From Carpediemonas membranifera BICM (taxonomy: Eukaryota; Protista; Fornicata): a DNA stretch of 10,106 bases. Below, in pieces: positions 1-10,106 of this stretch. The stretch spans positions 1,185-11,290 of the forward strand of contig JAHDYR010000051.1 in assembly GCA_019828565.1 (NCBI GenBank). The letters run 5' to 3'. Position numbers and translations under genes: made by a program. The notes under the pieces are model-generated. The model saw only the letters and a list, made by a program, of their open reading frames with translations. It was not told where the DNA came from and ran no database searches. The stretch's first letter is position 1, and every line of letters starts with the position of its first letter.

Positions 1-1759
1 GAGTGACAAAAGCGGTTTTGGGGATATCTTCCTCGTGCATCCGCATCTGGTAGTAGCCTTGTCTGAGGTCTAGGCCTGCAAAGTATTTGCAGCCTGATGC
101 TCGGTCTACAAACTCGCGCGTGTTAGGCAGGGGGAAGTTATCCCTCACTGTCTTGGAGTTTAACTCCTTGTAGTCAATGCAAAGACGGATCTTGGTCGAT
201 CCTTTGTGGCCCTGCCTGACTACTACGATCGGCGAGCTGTACGGCCCAGTCGAGTCCTGGATTATCCCGTCTCGCCTGAGTTGTTCTAGCTCTGTCGACA
301 CCAGGCCTTGGGTCACTGGGTCGAGTCTGCGAGCGCGGCATTGTACAATTGCCCGCTCGTCTATCAGTTCAATCGACATGGGTTCCAGTCGAGACCCTTC
401 CTTGGGTAGTTCTTCCTCGAAGATATCGTCAAATGAGTTGATTATCTCGAGAATCTCGGGTCGGATCTTCGACTCCGGGACGTGGACACCACAGTAGTCG
501 TCGGTTATCGCCATGTTTGCGTCCTCCGTGAGATATTCATGGTAGAACGGCAGCCAGTCCTCGTCCTCCTCAATTGAGGAGAGCTTGTGCAGGTTAAGGT
601 TGAGTGTGCCATCGCCAATGAGTGCGAGTGACCTCAGCAAGTCACACCCGATGAGAGCCTTGAAGAACTCACCGGGGAGTACGTAGTACTTCCATGTAAC
701 CTCCAACGGTGTGACACCTAGTGCTGGGAATGCTGCCTTAAATGTGACTGCTTGATCTGTCACGAGGGAGCGTCCGTCTCCTAGCGTGACCTTGATCTTT
801 TCCTCGAGAGAGGTCTGCACTGTGTCCTTGGGTAGGGTACGTAGTGCCTTCGAACTAATGAAGCTTCGGCTTGCACCAGTGTCTACAACGAACGAGTAAG
901 TTTTGCCTTTTACAGTAGCGGGGGTCGTCAGTGGACCCTTCCCGCCCTTCTCGTTAGTCGACGCGCTGTCGGCGTTGTTGTTCTCGCTGTAGCGGGGGTG
1001 CTTATCGCATCTGAAGTCCATGTGGGGACCGCCACAGAAACGACAGGGGCGCGACGGCTTCTTGGGTCCGTCGGCCGGCGGGCGCTTGGCCGCGTCCGGG
1101 CGGTACTGGGCCTTCCTGGCCTGGGCCGGGGCCTTGGGTCCGCCGGCCGGGGTTTGCGAGAGGGGTTGATCATGGTCATACGCCCTAGCAGCCCTAAGAG
1201 CCACCGCTACGGTGTCCTCGAAGGTCTTGACGTTGTGGAGAGCAAGCAAGGTCTGTGCCTTCTTGCGGAATGCTGTCGGGTTCAGGGACTCCCGGAAGAG
1301 CCGTGCAGCCAGCTTATCAAAGCTTGCGAGCAGTTCGTCGGCATTGGGGTTGTCGTCGATGGGGTCCAAGAACCCTTCTGGGTCTGGCGTCTTGGAGTAG
1401 AGCTCGATGCGCTTGCGGAATGCTGCCGCTTGTAGTCTCGTGCCAGCTTCGAAGTTGCGTGCGGTGCTCGGCACCATGGGGAAACGAAGGTCTTGGAGCT
1501 CTTCGACGAGTGCTAGGATGGAGTGGGGAAGGAGCCGCTGGCGACACCATTCGGTGAAGTTCTTGAGAGTGTAGTTCTTGTCGGATGTGTCTATGCCTTC
1601 GGCCTTGAGTTCGAGGGCAAATGACTCCTCAATGAGGACGGACAGTGGGATGCTTGGGTTTTGTATAGTAAAAATCGTTGCTCGGCGCTCAAACTCCTCA
1701 AGAGTCTCTAGTGTTAGATTTGAAGGAGAAAGCTCAGGAATTTGAACAGTTAACGACAT
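1..1759 (-). CDS. Gag-Pol polyprotein, single ORF, 3'-truncated by the window edge (586 codons visible)
   Basis: Hand translation from the ATG at 1759 (MSLTVQIPELSPSNLTLETLEEFERRA...) has no stop to the edge. Motifs: zinc knuckle CRFCGGPHMDFRC (1045-1007), aspartic protease FVVDTGASRSFIS (catalytic D at 883-881) and LIGCDLL, RT motifs GIIQDSTGPYSSPIVVV, IRLCIDYKELNSKTVRDNFPLP and KYFAGLDLRQGYYQMRMHEEDIPKTAFVT. It is absent from the ORF track, presumably because it has no stop inside the window. Confidence 0.96.
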   Translation of the reverse strand, partial: MSLTVQIPELSPSNLTLETLEEFERRATIFTIQNPSIPLSVLIEESFALELKAEGIDTSDKNYTLKNFTEWCRQRLLPHSILALVEELQDLRFPMVPSTARNFEAGTRLQAAAFRKRIELYSKTPDPEGFLDPIDDNPNADELLASFDKLAARLFRESLNPTAFRKKAQTLLALHNVKTFEDTVAVALRAARAYDHDQPLSQTPAGGPKAPAQARKAQYRPDAAKRPPADGPKKPSRPCRFCGGPHMDFRCDKHPRYSENNNADSASTNEKGGKGPLTTPATVKGKTYSFVVDTGASRSFISSKALRTLPKDTVQTSLEEKIKVTLGDGRSLVTDQAVTFKAAFPALGVTPLEVTWKYYVLPGEFFKALIGCDLLRSLALIGDGTLNLNLHKLSSIEEDEDWLPFYHEYLTEDANMAITDDYCGVHVPESKIRPEILEIINSFDDIFEEELPKEGSRLEPMSIELIDERAIVQCRARRLDPVTQGLVSTELEQLRRDGIIQDSTGPYSSPIVVVRQGHKGSTKIRLCIDYKELNSKTVRDNFPLPNTREFVDRASGCKYFAGLDLRQGYYQMRMHEEDIPKTAFVT

Positions 1760-1903
1760 CAGCACAGCTAATACTAGTATTGTCGGTTGAAATCATTTAC
1801 AGTAAACCGCAGCGGGGTAAAAGTGGTCAAAACTGGACGGAGCAGTTTATAGACCGGTGACATGGCGTTTCCGTTCATTCTGTGAAGGGTGCACTGCTTT
1901 ATA

Positions 1904-2010: not shown

Positions 2011-2557
2011 ATTCTACGCAACGGAGATTGCCCCGTACTATTCCACCGATCAAGTCTTCTTCCTCGACGAGACTAGCTTCGACCCCCGTCACCTGGCGGT
2101 CAAGCGAGTGCGCGGCCCAAAAGGCGTTAGGACATATGCTTGCCGCAAGGGTGGCCCGGTCGGCCAGCGTTACTCGGTGTGCGCGACTCTTGGCGTCGAA
2201 GGGATCAAGCACAGAGTCATAACGACAGGTACATTTACTGCTGACAAGTTTCTAGACAATACCATAGAGTTGCTGGGGATGATACCTGGGTGCGTCCTCG
2301 TGATGGACAATGCCTCCATACACGCACTCAAGGGCAAGCTTGACGCCCTAATGCAACTCTATGATGTCCGCATCGTCTTCCTCCCTAAGTATTCGCCATT
2401 CTTGAACCCAATCGAGGTTGTGTTCGCGTGGATCAAGGCGTTTGTTCACACGCACTTTAAGGACATGGGGCGTTTGCCGGCAATACTCGCCGCCTTTGAT
2501 GACGTTGCCAAGAAAAACATAAGAGGTCTCTACGAGAAGCATGGATATTCCCATTAA
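2011..2557 (+). pseudogene. IS630/Tc1-mariner superfamily transposase (DDE_3-like, DD35E), C-terminal catalytic half; N-terminus displaced by the gypsy insertion
   Basis: Motifs QVFFLDETSF (D 2066-2068), VLVMDNASIH (D 2306-2308) and IVFLPKYSPFLNPIEVVFAWIK (E 2414-2416), with 35 residues between the second D and E. There is no HTH region, and the upstream 41 codons of the listed ORF 1889-2557 are LTR/PBS sequence. Confidence 0.92.
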
Positions 2558-2563
2558 AGCTGT

Positions 2564-3013
2564 TTATTCTCTCAATTCTTGGCTGGATGTAACAGATAGA
2601 GCTGGCTGAGAAGGTTCGCTGCGCTCTGCTTCCTCCAAAGACGTAAGGAACGAGATAACGCGAGAGTACCACTCGGGCTTCACTGGGATGGAGATAAAGC
2701 CGTGCGACACTTCTCTCCGCGGTGCAGGCTGATAGTCAGAGGATGAGGGCGTCGAGTGCGGCTTCAGGAGACCGGCGGGAGGATTAGCGACAGTGGCATG
2801 TCCTCGCATGATCTCGAATGCCCATGCGGCAATCATCCTTCCAGGGAGAGCCCGTGCAATCTCCGAGTTCTCCACCAACGTCCTCATTCCCTGTGTTATC
2901 GCGGAGTTATCAACATTACCATCCTCAGCTGTAGATAAAACATCTTTGAATGGGCATCCAGCCCTGTTGTGGTTCTTGCAGCTGCACAGGCTACACGTTA
3001 CAGTTCTCACCAT
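2564..3013 (-). CDS. 149-aa protein with N-terminal CCHC zinc knuckle
   Basis: CSLCSCKNHNRAGC is C-X2-C-X4-H-X4-C. The ATG is preceded by an AT-rich intergenic stretch. Its stop lies 6 bp from the transposase stop (convergent). Confidence 0.75.
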   Translation of the reverse strand: MVRTVTCSLCSCKNHNRAGCPFKDVLSTAEDGNVDNSAITQGMRTLVENSEIARALPGRMIAAWAFEIMRGHATVANPPAGLLKPHSTPSSSDYQPAPRREVSHGFISIPVKPEWYSRVISFLTSLEEAERSEPSQPALSVTSSQELRE

Positions 3014-3103
3014 CTGTCGTCAATCAAAAAGTTCCAGGCCTAATCAAAATGATGTTCATTTTTAGAGTAAAAGAGCAATATATGATAACATAACATTGCA
3101 TGG

Positions 3104-4023
3104 TCAGTTTCGAGGAATGGCGCAAGATGCTACGATCTCGATCTCTGGCAATGACAGAGCTCCAACACAGGCAGACATCGACAGATTATTCCATCCTCGC
3201 TGCCGTGTTCGATCCCGGGCACATGAGTATTCTTTTCTGTAGCTCGCAAACCGGCTGCACTGGCCTGAAGCGTAGCTGAAGGGTAGCTTGCAGCCTTGAG
3301 TCATGCGCAGTTTGGAAGTGCTTACGGCGGGGTTGGACTTGGTTTGGGCCTTCCGCTGCTTACGCTTGCGGGGCCGCGGCTTGACCTGCAGTATCTTGAA
3401 CTGCTCCACCTTTCGGGCGAGGTAGCGAGGGTCATCGATGGCGAGACTCTTGAAGCGAGCAACCGGGTGCTCCTCTTCATCGGCCTCAAAGTAAGTCTCG
3501 CCATAATCGATGCGCAAGAACTCGCCGCGAACGATGTTGGCAGTGGCTCTGACCGAGATAACTGGCAGGCCATCCACCAAGACGTCCACAAACTCACAGT
3601 TGACATCGTCAGGGCTGTGGTTAATCATGTGGACACCCGCTGTGGCCGACATGGCATCGACGGCGACCTGACTGTCAGCGAATGACATGCTGTGTAATGG
3701 TAATGGAATAAAAGCGAAACAAACACCATCTGGCCGTCGTTGCTGGCCGTCTCGGCATCGGAAATCTGCTTGCCGAAGTATATGCCGAGACATGTGCCAG
3801 CTGAGATATCCTCAGTGGCAATCATGCCTCGGCCGACGCTCTGCGTCCGATTGAGGGCCGGATGGTCGGGTTCCTGGGTCAACCGGGGGTCGCAACGGGT
3901 CTCGGATGAGATCCAGGCCGGAGCAGGAATGGCCTGAAGGCTTATCTCATCCGAAATCAGCCGCCTGACGTCCTGCAGGTCTGAACCCGGGTAAACATGC
4001 GTCCACCTAGGGTGGACGTGCAT
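3104..4023 (-). CDS. SET-domain lysine methyltransferase-like protein (SET-A), join(4023..3725, 3689..3104), about 294 aa; true start may be further upstream
   Basis: SET-N (VGRGMIATEDISAGTCLGIYFG) is in ORF 3625-4023 and SET-C (GVHMINHSPDDVNC...VISVRATANIVRGEFLRIDYGETYF) is in ORF 3104-3793. Removing a 35-nt GT-AG intron joins them in frame. A basic NLS-like KPRPRKRKQRK follows the domain. Confidence 0.88.
3690..3724 (-). other. 35-nt spliceosomal intron in SET-A
   Basis: Minus-strand sequence GTTTGTTTCGCTTTTATTCCATTACCATTACACAG is AT-rich against GC-rich exons and bounded GT...CAG. Removal gives DGQMV-MSFADSQVAVDA and restores the frame. Confidence 0.85.
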
Positions 4024-4164
4024 GACGGACCCCTCGACGGAGTCCTCCTCGGGTTCAGACGAGCTGGATAAGGCGGAAGGCGACTCGGGAGGCGGAGGAG
4101 GAGGTGATCAGCTGCAGTTACAGTTGTTTCCGCAGAACGTTGATCCTGCGGAGAAGCAGATGAC

Positions 4165-5400
4165 TCAAAAGTTTCGTGGGCGGATTTTGAGTTTGGTTGA
4201 TGAAAGGATGACGTCGCCGATCACGAGACAGCGACCCTTCTCGGTGTTGAGGACCACTTTCCTCTTGATGTCCTCGACCTGTTTGGTCCACACATTGACT
4301 GACACTATGTCAGCTGCGGGATGCGTATCTTGTTTCGGGTGTTGGGGAGCGTTGGGGAGAGGATCGAACGGGTTGTCCATGCACAGCGTACGATAAATCC
4401 AGAAGCAGTCTTGCAGGTGGAGCTCATTGGCCAGTACCTGCTCTGGAGTGAGGATGATGCAGGTGTGCCTGTACGGTTTCGTCGAAATCGTCTTCATCAG
4501 CTCGGTTGTCTCGGCCGTGTCGTTATCTCTAGTACACGTGGCGAAGTAAATCATACGCACACGTGTTTGATCGACGACTGTAGGCTCCTTGAATGCGGCC
4601 GTGATCAACTCCACAAAGTTGTGGAGGAACAGGGCATCGTTTGTGGCCGCATCAATGACCAAGCGAGAAGTACTAGTCTCCGTATGGCCAGAAATGACCC
4701 AATACGTGTCGAAGTTGGCGTAAAGATCGGCCAGGGTCCTCAATTTGGAAACCAAATCTGCTGTCGAGGAGAACGACACGGCCTCGATTGTGAGGTACTG
4801 TACTCGAATTTGTGCGACCTCGGGCCATTCGTCACGGTCCCTCTGGGCCAAAGCCTGGATCGCATTGCGATCATGCTGAAACAGCCTGACGCGAGACATC
4901 AGCTGCTCAGCCGGTTCATCAGGATTGGCCGTGACAGGAGCGGCCGGGGTGCTGCCCGGGATGGCCAGGCGGTCCGCGATGTGGTTCTCCATCAGGGCGA
5001 TGGGACCGTCATCAGCGGACAACCGGTCACAAACCAACTGGGCCACAGTCTCGGCGGAGACTGTTGTGGCATGGGCGGAGACCACATGAGACAGCATCAC
5101 GAAGCGCAGATCGACCAAGTCGGCATCCGTGTTCATGAGCGAGAGGATGCGGGTGTGCTCGTCGCATGCGGGGGCGATGTCGACCGAAATCTCCTCATTC
5201 GGGTCAATCCCGTCAATGACGAGAAGACCCTCATGATCCAGATGGAAACCCATCCAGGAGCCACTGCGCACGTTGAAGTTGCGGTTCAAGCCGGGGTTGT
5301 CGACGCGCGGTGCCAAGAGGATGGGAGAAGCGTGATAATTATCCTCACCCTCGACAGTGGCGGAGAAAACGGCGGTGATGACAAACAATTGAGTAACCAT
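4165..5400 (-). CDS. 411-aa protein with probable caspase/CHAT-like (clan CD) peptidase domain
   Basis: Long ORF with an ATG next to an AT-rich divergent intergenic region. YWVISGH (H239, 4686-4684) and RMIYFATC (C289, 4536-4534) resemble the hydrophobic strand-GH and strand-xxC dyad motifs of CHAT/caspase-fold proteases, 50 aa apart. The ORF is solid; the fold call is moderate. Confidence 0.6.
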   Translation of the reverse strand: MVTQLFVITAVFSATVEGEDNYHASPILLAPRVDNPGLNRNFNVRSGSWMGFHLDHEGLLVIDGIDPNEEISVDIAPACDEHTRILSLMNTDADLVDLRFVMLSHVVSAHATTVSAETVAQLVCDRLSADDGPIALMENHIADRLAIPGSTPAAPVTANPDEPAEQLMSRVRLFQHDRNAIQALAQRDRDEWPEVAQIRVQYLTIEAVSFSSTADLVSKLRTLADLYANFDTYWVISGHTETSTSRLVIDAATNDALFLHNFVELITAAFKEPTVVDQTRVRMIYFATCTRDNDTAETTELMKTISTKPYRHTCIILTPEQVLANELHLQDCFWIYRTLCMDNPFDPLPNAPQHPKQDTHPAADIVSVNVWTKQVEDIKRKVVLNTEKGRCLVIGDVILSSTKLKIRPRNF

Positions 5401-5625
5401 GGGGTGCTATCAACTTATGCTTTGGGTTTTTTTTTCTGCGGAGGCCAGTGGGCCTTGCTGTTGCCTTCGGTGAGCAAGGCGGCTGCGAGGTTAGTAAGCA
5501 GTTGTTGCATTGCCAATTTATTGATTGTCTGCATTTTGAAAATGTATAGTGCACTAAACATAATCTAGTTTTCCTTATTTTTTTCTTGCACGGATCTTGG
5601 CCGATAAGCAAACAAGCAAGCAAGC
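5401..5625. promoter_or_regulatory. Divergent (likely bidirectional promoter) intergenic region
   Basis: 225-bp relatively AT-rich gap with T tracts between head-to-head ATGs at 5400(-) and 5626(+). AAGC repeats lie directly before the 5626 ATG. No specific element identified. Confidence 0.45.
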
Positions 5626-8124
5626 ATGTCGGAAACCACGGTTTTAACCTTTGGCGAACCTGTTTCCCAGGAGAGTGCCAACCTCCTCTTCAACCCAGAC
5701 GGCTCACATCCTATCCCGCAGCCGGTTCTGGACGCTATGATGTCTCCCCTCATGCCAGCCCAGCGCGAGAGTCTTCCTGCCCTGGTGCACACGCATCATG
5801 ACCAGATTGCTGTCAATAACCGGGGTCTGGTCATCAAGCAGCGGAAGAAGCAGTCAGGAGCAGCAGGCCGTCTCGTCTCGAACAGTGTTGCTGCCGGACT
5901 CCACGTGAGCAAGACCAGGGTCGGCAATGGTCTTTTCTGCTCGACGAAGATCGCTGCGGGCCATCCGATTGGGCTGTACATCGGTTTCTTCAGAGACCCC
6001 ACCCCCGCGGCCTCGATGACCCTCGCAACCGACGAGTACTCCATCTGCATCAGTCTGCCGACGGATGATGCAGACTGGACGGACAAGCAGTACGTGATTG
6101 ACGGTATCACAGTGAAGGACGACCCATCCCCTTCCTGCTGCTTCGTCAATTATCGGTCGGGATCCAGGGCACCCCGCATCAGATACTGGCTGATTGGGCA
6201 GGCGGCTGTGCCGATTTTCGTCTGCGATGAGGCCGTCAAGGCGTCGACGGAGCTCGTGGCTGACTACGGGGAAACCTTCCTGCATCTGATGGAGATGGCA
6301 AACATTCCCGTTGAGTCAACCGTGTTCGACGTCCCGACTTCCGGGCGCCAACCCAAGCAGGGCAAGTCGGAGACTCAGACACTCCCCGTTCATATTGATG
6401 AGGAACATTTGGAGGCGATGATGATCGCATCTGGTATGCATCCGGCCGCCACTCCTCCGGCCGCCACTCCTCCGGCCGCCACTCCTCCGGCCGCCACTCC
6501 TCCGGTCGCCACTCCTCAGGCCGCCACTCCTCCGGTCGCCACTCCTCCGGCCGCCACTCCTCCGGCCGCCACTCCTCCGGTCGCCACTCCTCAGGCCGCC
6601 ACTCCTCCGGTCGCCACTCCTCAGGCCGCCACTCCTCAGGCCGCCGCCGTGCAGACGGCTGAGAAGAAGAAGTATCGTCATCTTTCCTGCGATGCTTACC
6701 TTGGCGGGTCTTCGATCAGGCCACACGGCGAGCATGGCTGGGTTCTTTCTGGGCGTCCCAATGATTTGTGGATGCGGGACTGCGTCGGTATCAGCACGGT
6801 CGTGTCCCAAAATGCGATCCTGTTCATTCAGGTAGACGCAGCTGGACAGGTCCTGTCTGAGACACTTGCTCAGCGGACCCTTTCGAACGTTAGGTTCACG
6901 ACTCTTGGCCAAGGTCCGGCACGCTACCGCACCGTCTGCATGCCGTTCCAGCCCATGCCGCCGACTGACCTTCACCTTCTGTCTGTTGAGAATGCATATA
7001 ACGTTCTCCAGACCCAGCGGGTCCTTTATGGAGCTGGCCTTCAGCCGCTGCTCGAGTTGTTGTGTCAGTACTACTTTGGCAAAACCTCTGTCACTGTAGT
7101 GAAGACGTCTGCCGTCCCCACCGTCCTCGCCATCCTCTCCCAGATCTCGTTGGTGTTGGTGGATGGTGTGTATGATTGCCCGACCGGTCTGTGGGTTGTC
7201 AGAGTTAGCACAGATGTCGCTACACTCAAGTACAAGTCAAGTGTGGGTGTCATCATAGTCGTCAATGATGACGATGACGACGCAGACGTGCCAGCCAATG
7301 TTGACGTGTGCCGACTCACGTTGACTTCTCCTGACCAGACACCGCTGCTCAACATGCTCCCCCTCATGGCTGACCTGCTCGACTATGTTGTTGTCCTGCA
7401 GTCCGGCGTGGCTTGCACACATTTGTCCGGTCTTCTGACTCCTTACCCGACGCAGTTCCTGGAGTCGCTGAAGGACTTGTGTCAGCCGACTCGAGTTCCG
7501 AATCTGTCCTCCGTGAACATGCTTCACGACCAGATGAAGCAGAAGTACCACGTCAGCCCTACCAAAGGCTCGGAGGCGGTTGAGGAAGTTGTGAATGAGG
7601 AGGTTGTGGTGTATAACGAGTTGAGCAATGAGTTCACCACCACAGTCGTCGATTGCGCCTACCGCAACAAGTGCCTCGTCTATTCCATCTACGGGATGCT
7701 TTCGGGCGGCGAGAAGATGTCTGATGACCAACTGACAACGCTCGGCGACCGCCTGTCACAGTTTGTCCATGACGATCATGTTGTGACCGCGGTGCCCAAC
7801 ATCGCGGATATCGAGCGAAGATACCGCAACGACACGTTCATGCAGGATGAGGATGCACGTATTCTCGCGCCGATGATGTGCACGGAGTTCTCACTTCGTC
7901 CGGAGTCTTTCTACATCGTCAGCGACTCGATGGTCGTAATCTGCAAGCCTGCGCAGGTGGCATGGAACGTTTCCTTCAGTACCTCCATGTGCCATGATAC
8001 GCTGCCCGACCGCGTGATTCATTTTAGCCGCAACCACTTCACGGTGAAACAGAGGAGCGCCGGAGCAAGAAAGCGCGGGGCAATGCCCACACGCGCCGAG
8101 AAGAAGTCGAGGTATTGCCTATAA
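5626..8124 (+). CDS. 832-aa multidomain protein (SET-B): SET domain (aa ~91-218), PAATP repeat linker, unassigned middle region, OTU-like cysteine protease region at the C-terminus
   Basis: SET motifs RVGNGLFCSTKIAAGHPIGLYIG, YVIDG, CFVNY and TELVADYGETF. C-terminal DCAYRNKCLVYSI (C683) and VIHFSRNHF (H804) resemble the OTU Cys-box and His-box. There is a basic tail RKR...KKSR. SET call strong, OTU call tentative. Confidence 0.82.
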   Translation: MSETTVLTFGEPVSQESANLLFNPDGSHPIPQPVLDAMMSPLMPAQRESLPALVHTHHDQIAVNNRGLVIKQRKKQSGAAGRLVSNSVAAGLHVSKTRVGNGLFCSTKIAAGHPIGLYIGFFRDPTPAASMTLATDEYSICISLPTDDADWTDKQYVIDGITVKDDPSPSCCFVNYRSGSRAPRIRYWLIGQAAVPIFVCDEAVKASTELVADYGETFLHLMEMANIPVESTVFDVPTSGRQPKQGKSETQTLPVHIDEEHLEAMMIASGMHPAATPPAATPPAATPPAATPPVATPQAATPPVATPPAATPPAATPPVATPQAATPPVATPQAATPQAAAVQTAEKKKYRHLSCDAYLGGSSIRPHGEHGWVLSGRPNDLWMRDCVGISTVVSQNAILFIQVDAAGQVLSETLAQRTLSNVRFTTLGQGPARYRTVCMPFQPMPPTDLHLLSVENAYNVLQTQRVLYGAGLQPLLELLCQYYFGKTSVTVVKTSAVPTVLAILSQISLVLVDGVYDCPTGLWVVRVSTDVATLKYKSSVGVIIVVNDDDDDADVPANVDVCRLTLTSPDQTPLLNMLPLMADLLDYVVVLQSGVACTHLSGLLTPYPTQFLESLKDLCQPTRVPNLSSVNMLHDQMKQKYHVSPTKGSEAVEEVVNEEVVVYNELSNEFTTTVVDCAYRNKCLVYSIYGMLSGGEKMSDDQLTTLGDRLSQFVHDDHVVTAVPNIADIERRYRNDTFMQDEDARILAPMMCTEFSLRPESFYIVSDSMVVICKPAQVAWNVSFSTSMCHDTLPDRVIHFSRNHFTVKQRSAGARKRGAMPTRAEKKSRYCL
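6442..6645 (+). repeat. Coding 15-bp minisatellite, 13 full units plus a partial (consensus CCGGCCGCCACTCCT = PAATP; variants PVATP, QAATP)
   Basis: Read directly from the sequence; in frame within the 832-aa ORF. Confidence 0.97.
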
Positions 8125-8345
8125 ATGTGAGATATGCCTGCATATGCTCGGCCTCGCAGTCAGACGAGGTGACCAAGCCTCATATCACGCATCACAAGGA
8201 AGGCGTAGGCCATTTCGTGGGCCATTGGTAAATCCCGGGAGATATTCACGTATTTGTCCCCTTTTTCCATGTATAGCCGTAAGATCGCCTTGAGAGGTCT
8301 GATCTGAGCCTTTTAGCCGGTTAGTTTGCCCAATCTTTGGAGTCT

Positions 8346-8364
8346 GGTAAGGTAAGGTAAGGTA
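8346..8364 (+). repeat. (GGTAA)n microsatellite, about 4 units
   Basis: GGTAAGGTAAGGTAAGGTA in the convergent intergenic gap. Confidence 0.8.
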
Positions 8365-8401
8365 CTCTCTCGCACTCCTCCATCTCAGCCACTTCGCCAG
8401 A

Positions 8402-8438
8402 GCCCTTCAACGCCTTGATCGCCCTTCAACGCCTTATC
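8402..8438 (+). repeat. 19/18-bp tandem duplication
   Basis: GCCCTTCAACGCCTTGATC followed by GCCCTTCAACGCCTT-ATC, just downstream of the SET-chromodomain stop. Confidence 0.85.
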
Positions 8439-8449
8439 GTTTATGTTCA

Positions 8450-9209
8450 TTAAACCTGGGCTTCTTGCTCATGAGCGAAAGGAAGACCATCCACTTCGGC
8501 TTGACCCAAGCCAGCATGTTCGGGTGGCATCCAGCTGGGATCGTATCCGTACTTCCACTGTACGAGAACTTCAGTCACCCCCTCAGTGGAAACGCGTTTG
8601 CCAACGATATTCTCGATCTCGTAGATCGTGCTGATCATATCAAGGCGGCTGCGGGTAATCTTCTTACCGTGGGCGTCATCACGCCAGAAGCGAGAACCGT
8701 ACGGAAGTGATAGGAACCCGTTCTTGGGAACCTCCTCCGTCGTCACAACGGCCACAACCGGGATGCTGTAATAGCTTGCGACGATCGACACGCAGTTGTG
8801 GACCTTAGTGTCTGAGTAAACCTGTAATAGTAAAAGACAAACCGTCGTTGATGCGGTGGACACCCGGGTCACTCATCAGCTGGTTAGAGCAGACTGCCGC
8901 CTTGCCGAGTTCCACGAGGGACTCTGAGGACTGGACAGGGCAGGTGACCAAGGTCCCAAGGAAGATCCCGACGAAGGAGTGGGCAGGAAGACCCAAAGGG
9001 CACACAAGACCGTGTCCAGCATGCTTTCCCGGCTGGCTCCTCAGCTGCTGTGGCTGAACGGAGAAGGGAACGTTCACATTGAGACCATACTGGTCAATGC
9101 AGACGGGACAGACAAGCATGACGGTATCGGAGTCAATGCCAATGGCAGTCCGGACTGGATCCTCCTTCTGGCAATAAACCAGAAAGGCAGCGTCGTCAAC
9201 GGAATGCAC
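8450..9209 (-). CDS. SET + chromodomain protein (SET-C), join(>=9209..8843, 8811..8450); start uncertain (first in-frame ATG 9119, or ATG 9307 via a further intron)
   Basis: SET-N (SQPGKHAGHGLVCPLGLPAHSFVGIFLG) and GVHRIND are in ORF 8805-9209. SET-C (HNC...PVVAVVTTEEVPKNGFLSLPYGSRFW) and the chromodomain YEIENIVGKRVSTEGVTEVLVQWKYGYDPSWMPPEH (8623-8516) are in ORF 8450-8872. A 31-nt GT-AG intron joins them in frame. Confidence 0.85.
8812..8842 (-). other. 31-nt spliceosomal intron in SET-C
   Basis: Minus-strand sequence GTTTGTCTTTTACTATTACAGGTTTACTCAG has the same GTTTGT donor as the 35-nt intron. Removal gives RIND-DTKVHNC and restores the frame. Confidence 0.82.
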
Positions 9210-9346
9210 ATCGACATCACCTCTCTTCTCCGGTAGAAACTGGCTACCTTACAATCGTCAGTCGGGTTGGTCAAGCTAGTAGCGGCTATCAGTGTAACAT
9301 CTCCCATTACCTGTATTCTTCCGGATTCGTCTTCGTTTTTTTCCAA

Positions 9347-9378
9347 CCTACCTAACTACCTAACTAACTGACTATCTA
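9347..9378 (+). repeat. Degenerate (CCTA/ACTA)n tetranucleotide tract followed by an A run
   Basis: CCTA CCTA ACTA CCTA ACTA ACTG ACTA TCTA, then about 10 A. Confidence 0.8.
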
Positions 9379-9444
9379 AAAAAAAAATCGGTCGGTCCAC
9401 TGTGCTAGTGAATGGTAGTAAGTACTACCTAAGGCATCATTTTT

Positions 9445-9492
9445 CCTACCTACCTACCTACCTACCTACCTAACTAACTAACTAACTAACTA
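9445..9492 (+). repeat. Compound microsatellite (CCTA)7(ACTA)5
   Basis: Counted directly from the sequence. Confidence 0.93.
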
Positions 9493-9595
9493 TTGCTTTT
9501 TTCACCTTAAATCAACCACGAGCTTGTTTATTTTGAGTCCTGAATTAAGCAATCAAACACTGTGTTTTGAGTGCTGAAAACAGGTGAATTGAGCG

Positions 9596-10106
9596 ATGGA
9601 CGATGAGGGAACGGATGTTACTATTAAGGTGAAGAAGTCTCGTAACAAGGTACTTTGCACGTTTATAGTGCAGATGAAGCAAGAGTGGACAGCTATGGAA
9701 GCCTTCGTGCGTGATATTCGCAACTTGGTCAGCGAAAAGGGGTATAACATTGCAGAGAGCGTTGCAAAGCAGAGAATTCAGGTACGTTACAAGCTTCCCA
9801 ATGATAAGGTCTTCTTAGAAGACATTACTATGGCTGCCTGGAGCAAGTTCACCAGATGCAGCAAGCCTGAGGCATATGTGTGGACTGCTGACCCCAACAA
9901 GACCACAGCTTCATCTCAACCTGTCCACCAACCGCGAAACGCACTCGTCGGCCGAGAGGCTTTGCATGAAGCCCGCGAGATCCTTCGTGCTGCCAATCCT
10001 GGCCTGACCGAATCTCAGCTGATGGGTTGGGCTCACTCCCTGGCGTCAGGAGTTGACGGAGTCACTGCCCTTGATCCACCGGCTGGCGTTCAATACGAGC
10101 GGCCAC
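9596..10106 (+). CDS. Hypothetical protein, 3'-truncated by the window edge (170 codons visible)
   Basis: ATG at 9596 (MDDEGTDVTIKVKKSRNKVLCTFIVQMKQEW...ILRAANPGLTESQLMGWAHSLASGVDGVTALDPPAGVQYERP) is open to the end of the window and divergent from SET-C. It is not in the ORF track. Confidence 0.75.
   Translation, partial: MDDEGTDVTIKVKKSRNKVLCTFIVQMKQEWTAMEAFVRDIRNLVSEKGYNIAESVAKQRIQVRYKLPNDKVFLEDITMAAWSKFTRCSKPEAYVWTADPNKTTASSQPVHQPRNALVGREALHEAREILRAANPGLTESQLMGWAHSLASGVDGVTALDPPAGVQYERP

Follow-up and report, generated by a model that had tools for sequence, protein, structure and literature searches.

Does a DDE transposase of Carpediemonas membranifera BICM, a free-living metamonad, carry a set of chromatin-modifying genes as its cargo? 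The question is raised by a 10,106-nucleotide stretch of contig JAHDYR010000051.1 (assembly GCA_019828565.1, positions 1,185 to 11,290, forward strand; hereafter the window, whose own numbering is used throughout), in which a transposase gene is followed by three SET genes, a chromodomain and two putative proteases. A preliminary description, made from the sequence alone, had proposed that positions 2011 to 10106 are one large DDE transposon, or a virus-like island, that writes, reads and erases chromatin marks. Our analysis gives slightly better than even support to a different arrangement, namely a pile-up of nested mobile DNA in which a broken, simple IS630-type element lies beside an older SET-rich block whose carrier is not seen. 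The 7-kb SET block is likely mobile DNA, and it is probably not the cargo of the neighbouring IS630-type transposase.

This reading is supported by the copy history of the genes, which is not shared among annotated proteins. According to excerpts of the genome report, the species has 24.2 Mb in 69 contigs and 8,300 proteins, and its gene prediction was preceded by repeat masking (PMC8516963); our counts cover the annotated proteins of that prediction, to which unannotated copies are invisible. The transposase recurs in five other accessions (three listed contigs) with 0–1 differences per 181 aa. Four further copies of SET-A lie on contigs of 166,045, 1,549,057, 1,840,870 and 925,995 bp, and the three that are full-length carry 7–10 differences per 190 aa (about 4–5%) relative to the window copy and 2–5 among themselves. 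The 832-aa gene encoding SET-B is a single member, its residues 350–832 having no other match among 7,994 scored candidates of 457–1456 aa, and SET-C returned only itself among 657 candidates of 45–340 aa. The 243-aa gene at the right end of the window is found in six further contig records. On the two contigs that SET-A and the transposase have in common, their accessions are 97, 136 and 140 apart, and on shared contigs the 243-aa gene is 24 accessions from the transposase and 73 from SET-A. With a gene spacing of about 2.9 kb, such gaps correspond to tens to hundreds of kilobases if accession order, assumed here as a proxy for genomic position, tracks position. Between two transposases that stand only 4 accessions apart, neither SET-A nor SET-C is annotated. 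The mobile-DNA setting of the preliminary description is upheld, the transposase family being young and repeated and SET-A dispersed and repeated. A single DDE element carrying the whole set is not: copy number and divergence are unlike, the other annotated copies of the transposase and of SET-A do not neighbour each other in accession order, and relatives of the transposase normally end within about 50 nt of the stop. The features of the window are the following.

2 to 1759, minus strand: Ty3/gypsy-type gag–protease–reverse transcriptase open reading frame (ORF), continuing off the left end of the window (Pfam gag-asp_proteas, E 5e-7; RVT_1, E 1.5e-6)
1781 to 1862, minus strand: candidate 82-bp 5′ long terminal repeat (LTR) of the Ty3/gypsy-type element, TGTC...GACA, delimited by sequence; its second LTR is outside the window
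1863 to 1880, plus strand: six-codon transposase remnant WRFRSF, joining 2011 if the insert is set aside; the same residues precede FYATE in the transposase copies P0176–P0178
1881 to 2010: 130-bp insert TGTGA...TCACA, likely a solo LTR, with ATTC duplicated on both sides
2011 to 2557, plus strand: broken copy of a DD35E transposase of IS630 type, reduced to its C-terminal 181 aa (Pfam, triad, near-identity to P0176–P0178)
2564 to 3013, minus strand: 149-aa ORF with one CCHC zinc knuckle (2954–2995), read from the sequence; weak codon bias
2565 to 2566: first TA, a candidate for the target site and for the simple element's right end (relatives end at TA soon after the stop)
3104 to 4193, minus strand: SET-A; a 35-nt intron (3690–3724) interrupts its SET domain (Pfam, paralogues, contigs of runs X1–X4)
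4165 to 5400, minus strand: 411-aa ORF with coding-type bias (third-codon-position GC content, GC3, 0.69); candidate His 4684–4686 and Cys 4534–4536, dyad spacing judged by eye
5626 to 8124, plus strand: intronless 832-aa gene (annotated, P0014) with degenerate SET-B (about 5923–6270), a 15-bp tandem repeat and, by eye, an OTU-like C-terminus
8450 to 9119, minus strand: SET-C and chromodomain (about 8513–8629), with a 31-nt intron at 8812–8842 (J8273_6916, P0172, 212 aa)
9330 to 9492: two CCTA/ACTA microsatellite runs, seen in the sequence
9531 to 9586: candidate for the right-hand edge of the SET block, 14-nt direct repeats (9531 and 9565) followed by an end reading CAC inward; X1/X4 contigs diverge at 9587
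9596 to 10106, plus strand: first 170 codons of the 243-aa gene, repeated in the genome (cluster of 5 proteins, 7 contig records)

The DD35E transposase is genuine, and it is a broken copy, a point missed in the preliminary description. The gene matched Pfam DDE_3 at 2012–2557 on the plus strand (E 7.7e-20) and has a triad of D 2066, D 2306 and E 2414, the last two separated by 35 residues; full-length members of its family matched NCBIfam IS630 at 96–107 bits (cut-off 100), and its closest database relatives are about 36% identical. An N-terminal helix-turn-helix (HTH), indicated in the full copies P0177 and P0178 by HTH_33/38/23 matches below the cut-off, is gone from the window copy, which is interrupted upstream of 2011 and keeps only its C-terminal half. 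Other copies continue upstream through WRFRSF. The 130-bp insert that separates this remnant from the rest of the gene holds a 15-bp AT-rich tandem (1977–2006) and is flanked by a duplicated 4-bp ATTC (1877–1880 and 2011–2014), and the Ty3/gypsy-type ORF adjoins the transposase and truncates it at the left. Because it is cut by both the insert and the Ty3/gypsy-type element, the window copy is dead; its left end lies outside the window.

Positions 1781–2014 hold two separate retro-type insertions no more than 20 bp apart in one transposase gene. The 130-bp insert and the 82-bp candidate LTR have no mutual similarity, and no tRNA primer site follows the 82-bp candidate. An LTR at 1917–2010 with a tRNA primer site was also considered and rejected, since the transposase codons and the ATTC duplication delimit the 130-bp insert instead. 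The gene model of P0178 (KAG9394030, on a contig of 323,035 bp) fuses a retroelement integrase tail and a chromodomain to a full transposase, which indicates that a chromodomain-bearing LTR element adjoins a further copy at its 5′ end and that the family sits amid retroelements elsewhere too. The near-identical transposases P0176 and P0177 (KAG9394417 and KAG9394421), the pair 4 accessions apart on the same contig, could be a composite around three genes.

How far the IS630-type element extends to the right bears directly on the cargo question. The 6-bp gap after the transposase, reported in the preliminary description, is real and separates its stop from that of the convergent zinc-knuckle ORF. 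The description of the whole run as tightly packed goes too far, with remaining gaps of 90, 141, 225, 325 and 476 bp. That no terminal inverted repeat was noted 3′ of the transposase stop proves nothing, since such a repeat can be recognised only with its partner, which lies outside the window. TA sites follow the stop at 2565, 2590 and 2597, and the first (2565–2566) lies 8 nt past it, within the zinc-knuckle ORF's own stop codon. We surveyed the ends of multi-copy prokaryotic relatives of the transposase in nine groups picked for having at least two copies. In seven of the nine (six distinct families), common sequence ended after 10–52 nt, counted from the stop codon's first base, and the end was TA wherever it was printed; one of the two remaining groups shares more than 400 nt and the other was uninformative. 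The Nitrosopumilus IS630-like copies L005 and L006, which have more than 400 nt in common past the first in-frame stop, possibly represent a longer element or a frameshifted gene. A simple element ending at TA 2565–2566 would explain the 6-bp gap. The window element may be such a short-ended simple element, an open reading rather than an established one, as the surveyed relatives are mostly only 24–40% identical to the transposase. A study of IS870 is said to describe IS630 stops formed by the target site; it was not found in our literature search.

The zinc knuckle itself stands, with a CX2CX4HX4C motif read from the minus strand at 2954–2995 and weak support from Pfam, where the ORF matched only a zinc-knuckle-containing eIF3g fragment (E 0.049). 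An AG directly precedes the ATG of this ORF, which may therefore be a last exon. A zinc-finger ORF accompanies the transposase of ciliate TBE elements.

At the other side, assembled contigs of four runs (X1–X4) provide an independent view of 3106–3476, 8369–8404 and 9587–10106; that their reads are RNA is a guess only, and parts they do not cover were not taken to be silent. The X1 and X4 contigs match the 243-aa gene from 9587, and their preceding 21–23 nt differ from the window. The junction shows no AG, TA or TT; splicing was rejected as the cause of the loose end, since no AG precedes it. On the window side it adjoins the 14-nt direct repeats, whose pattern was derived from the 9531–9586 site itself, and an end that reads CAC inward, as do CACTA- and Transib-type ends. 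No inverted partner of the 9586 end was found within the window. This configuration suggests a separate end for the SET block, not of a type that an IS630-type transposase would generate. At 4163–4192, where SET-A homology starts, lies a perfect 8-bp inverted repeat whose arms enclose a 14-nt loop, and its octamer recurs in both repeats at 9531 and 9565.

The gene beyond this edge is itself repeated. The window ORF is identical to P0165 and P0167 across 170 aa, and the 243-aa gene clusters with J8273_4922 and J8273_1529 and had no family match; it may belong to a mobile element of its own. It is identical in several copies and truncated in two, and contigs from all four runs cover it. A 170-aa product recorded on the contig stops at the final codon of the window, so that the window end is probably the contig end.

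Among the genes of the block, SET-A is the best defined. Both of its exons matched Pfam SET (E 9.6e-5 and 0.0076), as did its spliced paralogues (E 1.4e-10 and 2.6e-11), and paralogue P0170 shows the junction predicted by the 35-nt intron, which confirms the earlier assignment. The SET core consensus comprises GxG, YxG, NHS and a final (D)Y. SET-A keeps GxG, YxG, NHS and DYG in our alignments, and its sequence predicts an active lysine methyltransferase, most likely acting on histones. The closest solved structures, SETD8/KMT5A and Legionella RomA/LegAS4 (E 2e-7 and 3e-5), share with SET-A a minimal SET domain that has neither a pre-SET nor a cysteine-rich post-SET region; however, the resemblance is slight and does not extend beyond the SET core, and neither orthology nor substrate can be read from it. 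The gene is open from ATG 4023, and its 5′ remnant (4024–4193) has two frameshifts relative to P0170, which the preliminary description missed; one of them sits at a short A run. Paralogue models cease to match the window beyond about 4193 on the upstream side and beyond 3293 on the downstream side. The X1–X4 contigs match parts of 3106–3476 with no differences, including the tail specific to the window copy of SET-A.

SET-B and SET-C, about 20–25% alike to SET-A, proved to be real SET relatives, as the preliminary description had them, and degenerate ones. SET-B matched Pfam SET at E 0.027 over the whole model and scored 10.7 bits on a profile of the SET-A family, a value that none of 500 shuffles attained; its NHS His is lost and NH has become NY. 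SET-C had no Pfam SET match, yet it aligned with SET-A at 23% identity over 115 aa (E 1e-6) and scored 19.4 bits on the same profile (0 of 500 shuffles); its YxG tyrosine is F and its NH is ND, so both Tyr and His are lost. A bacterial SET profile, built from 8 of 30 loci chosen by motif, detected SET-A (0 of 500 shuffles), was marginal for SET-B (2 of 500) and missed SET-C. SET-B and SET-C are predicted to be weak or dead enzymes and, if anything, binding modules, SET-C together with its chromodomain. The chromodomain is borne out by homology, with PDB matches to cpSRP43 (E 1.9e-9, the best) and CDYL (E 2e-5) and a Pfam match under the cut-off (3.5e-4). A methyl-lysine-reading chromodomain has an aromatic cage of three residues, and cpSRP43 is not known to be a methyl-lysine reader. 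In the window protein, whose best match is cpSRP43, the first Tyr and the Trp of the cage are present and the third position is shifted. Within the 832-aa protein, a linker of (A-T-P-P-A) type is encoded by 13.7 copies of a 15-bp unit at 6441–6645. In a search of 50%-representative sequences with the full protein, all listed non-self matches fell on this Pro/Ala repeat, and the other domains were left uninformed.

The two protease assignments fared less well. The His and Cys of the 411-aa ORF are spaced, by eye, as in CHAT/caspase-like proteases, and the best named family in the Atlas was DUF6642/CHAT (0.83), a lead only. The ORF had no match in Pfam, PDB, NCBIfam or PHROGs. Two home-built CHAT profiles, one from 30 long-type and the other from 20 weaker-scoring cyanobacterial domains, scored it at −2.0 and −1.8 bits, values that many shuffles exceeded, and hhalign against them gave a probability below 1%. 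The OTU-like C-terminus of the 832-aa protein has a candidate Cys 7672 and His 8035, again by eye; it had no Pfam or PDB match, and its Atlas lead (0.83, rank 8) is a 60% viral cluster, 19% of whose members carry OTU. Single-sequence structure predictions had predicted local distance difference test scores too low to use (31.5 for the 411-aa ORF and 34.1), and no OTU or DUF6642 sequence was found in 401 sampled prokaryote genomes, in which the controls were silent as well. The CHAT/caspase-like and OTU identities are thus unconfirmed, possible leads. The claim that the locus writes, reads and erases marks was overstated, in that SET-A alone retains the complete group of core SET motifs and neither protease is confirmed.

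We propose that the nested pile-up would have formed in three steps, in an order that we infer from the arrangement. The block (about 2565–9586) would first have come to adjoin one copy of the 243-aa gene at its 5′ end. Next, a simple element about 1–1.5 kb long would have jumped into a TA at the left edge of the block, at 2565–2566 or just beyond, and two retro-type insertions would finally have killed that transposase copy. The block would have been moved by different machinery, unseen in the window, and SET-A would methylate, most likely, histones, helping its carrier to shape its own chromatin.

Several observations weigh against this reconstruction. No transposase, helicase or recombinase for the SET block was found in the window, its left end is not seen, and its right junction comes from two contigs of one sample. 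AATAAA/ATTAAA-like hexamers overlap both convergent stops, as would fit a co-evolved tail-to-tail pair, and all listed transposase copies finish at the same residue. The copy counts have their own limits: annotation of repeats is incomplete, and even the SET-A of the window was not returned in the protein search; the zinc-knuckle and 411-aa genes are uncounted, exact look-ups of their putative ORFs, and of that of SET-A, having found no match, probably owing to different gene models; and the correspondence of accession order with position is an assumption.

A related proposal is that the 7-kb block moves as one chromatin-modifying cassette, on an IS630-type or a CAC-ended element, comprising an active SET writer, two pseudo-SETs, a chromodomain reader and OTU-like and caspase-like proteases. 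We regard this as possible but on balance doubtful.

It is unlikely that the locus is one large IS630-type element with the whole block as cargo, other copies of which have been deleted internally, have diverged or are unannotated. The 6-bp convergent gap and the common last residue of the listed transposases would fit such an element, as would the repetition and dispersal of SET-A and the few, short introns, and excerpts of a study of the ciliate TBE elements show that multi-gene members of the superfamily exist (PMC4724952). However, the transposase differs at 0–1 positions where SET-A differs at 7–10, SET-B and SET-C were found once each, 97–140 accessions separate SET-A from the transposase, relatives end near the stop, and the sole candidate far end (9586) has no TA.

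We give still less weight to a lineage-specific host cluster of SET genes in a repeat-rich (e.g. subtelomeric) region from which SET-A spread by segmental duplication. The single SET-B and SET-C, with their low likeness to SET-A, would be old duplications, the long ORFs are uninterrupted and show coding-type bias, and no mobility gene surely belongs to the block. Against this, SET-A copies 95–99% alike lie on five contigs, several of their models look frameshifted or shortened, and both neighbours of the block are repeats. Protein searches returned no relative in other organisms, and within the database searches run no SET resembles an ordinary host methyltransferase, in keeping with the preliminary description.

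It is very improbable that the block is a piece of an endogenous DNA virus or of a Polinton-like element. The genes are compact, intron-poor and orphan, the Atlas cluster that scores 0.83 against the SET-B C-terminal part is largely viral, and excerpts of the genome report mention viral Rep genes in C. membranifera (PMC8516963). Among the window ORFs tested, however, we found none of the hallmarks for which a check had been advised (capsid, polymerase (pPolB), packaging ATPase), three scans of viral contigs with the transposase, SET-B and SET-A returned no relative, and two introns are of spliceosomal type. Plasmid and phage searches gave chance-level matches only, and a metagenome scan gave one match, at 30%. 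That the gene order is partly an assembly artefact is the least credible account: the contig is small (11,290 bp) and repeat-rich, the window ends in repeats on both sides and one SET-A frameshift sits at a short A run, but the 4-bp duplication at the 130-bp insert is clean and independent contigs match the locus-specific SET-A tail with no differences.

Some observations concern the remainder of the window. The minus strand of 8160–8450 may hold a decayed small gene, with a 19-bp tandem duplication (8402–8439) and a 22-nt intron-like stretch; within it, 36 nt (8369–8404) are common to a depth-47 contig with unrelated flanks. A 415-aa ORF on the plus strand (4321–5568) was rejected as an antisense shadow. 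An Rfam search of the window gave no match.

If the block is a single unit with working proteases, it would represent a new level of cargo complexity, and if it moves as a cassette, no DNA transposon would be known with a cargo richer in histone modifiers; its host is a eukaryote that is reported, in excerpts of its genome paper, to lack the origin recognition complex (ORC) and Cdc6 (PMC8516963). If it is not one unit, the locus is a clear case of nested repeats mimicking a cargo transposon. SET-A is a small predicted enzyme amenable to assay.

Compared with known systems, the transposase resembles the IS630-Tc1-mariner group in its DD35E triad, DDE_3 domain, the HTH of its full copies and its near-identical, dispersed copies. 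It differs from IS630 elements in its eukaryotic host, in relatives that are only about 36% identical, and in a window copy that is interrupted twice and whose ends and TA duplication are unseen. A composite bacterial Tn630 is described in excerpts (PMC11544213), and multi-gene elements of Tc1/mariner type occur in ciliates as TBE; the TBE genes (PMC4724952), however, travel jointly in many copies, whereas the genes of the window differ in copy number and divergence. SET occurs in proto-Helentron-Pi and OTU-like protease genes in Helentrons, whose non-autonomous partners carry microsatellites (excerpts of PMC4067079 and PMC6431247). Helitron-related helicases are reported from Carpediemonas, and helitron-related and geminivirus-like genes of C. 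membranifera are described as unexpressed (excerpts of PMC8516963). Unlike Helentrons, the window has no Rep/helicase gene, which could lie past the contig, and its OTU is unconfirmed; a search for Helentron-type ends found no clear subterminal inverted repeat pair in the window, and the 9587 junction is not TT. Retrotransposons with a chromodomain and DNA methyltransferases have also been described (bioRxiv 10.64898/2026.05.21.726589, in part).

The closest parallels are SET genes that serve as accessories on dispersed mobile DNA. Available excerpts cite SET genes in HarbingerS and in Phytophthora MuDR elements (PMC12730594) and report one in the red-algal Plavaka PAG2 (bioRxiv 10.1101/2025.02.11.637652), and both sources propose that such cargo counters or steers silencing. 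In those elements the SET gene lies within defined ends together with the element's own transposase, whereas the window has three SET genes, two of them degenerate, a neighbouring transposase of IS630 type, and a carrier that is not seen. A SET-bearing IS630-type element, or this block, was not reported in the literature searched, whose coverage leaves most subscription journals and Repbase outside. Chromatin-enzyme-carrying transposons are already known from oomycetes, red algae and fungi, and a dispersed, recently copied SET-A in a free-living metamonad would extend the theme to a lineage whose machinery for replication and segregation is very reduced.

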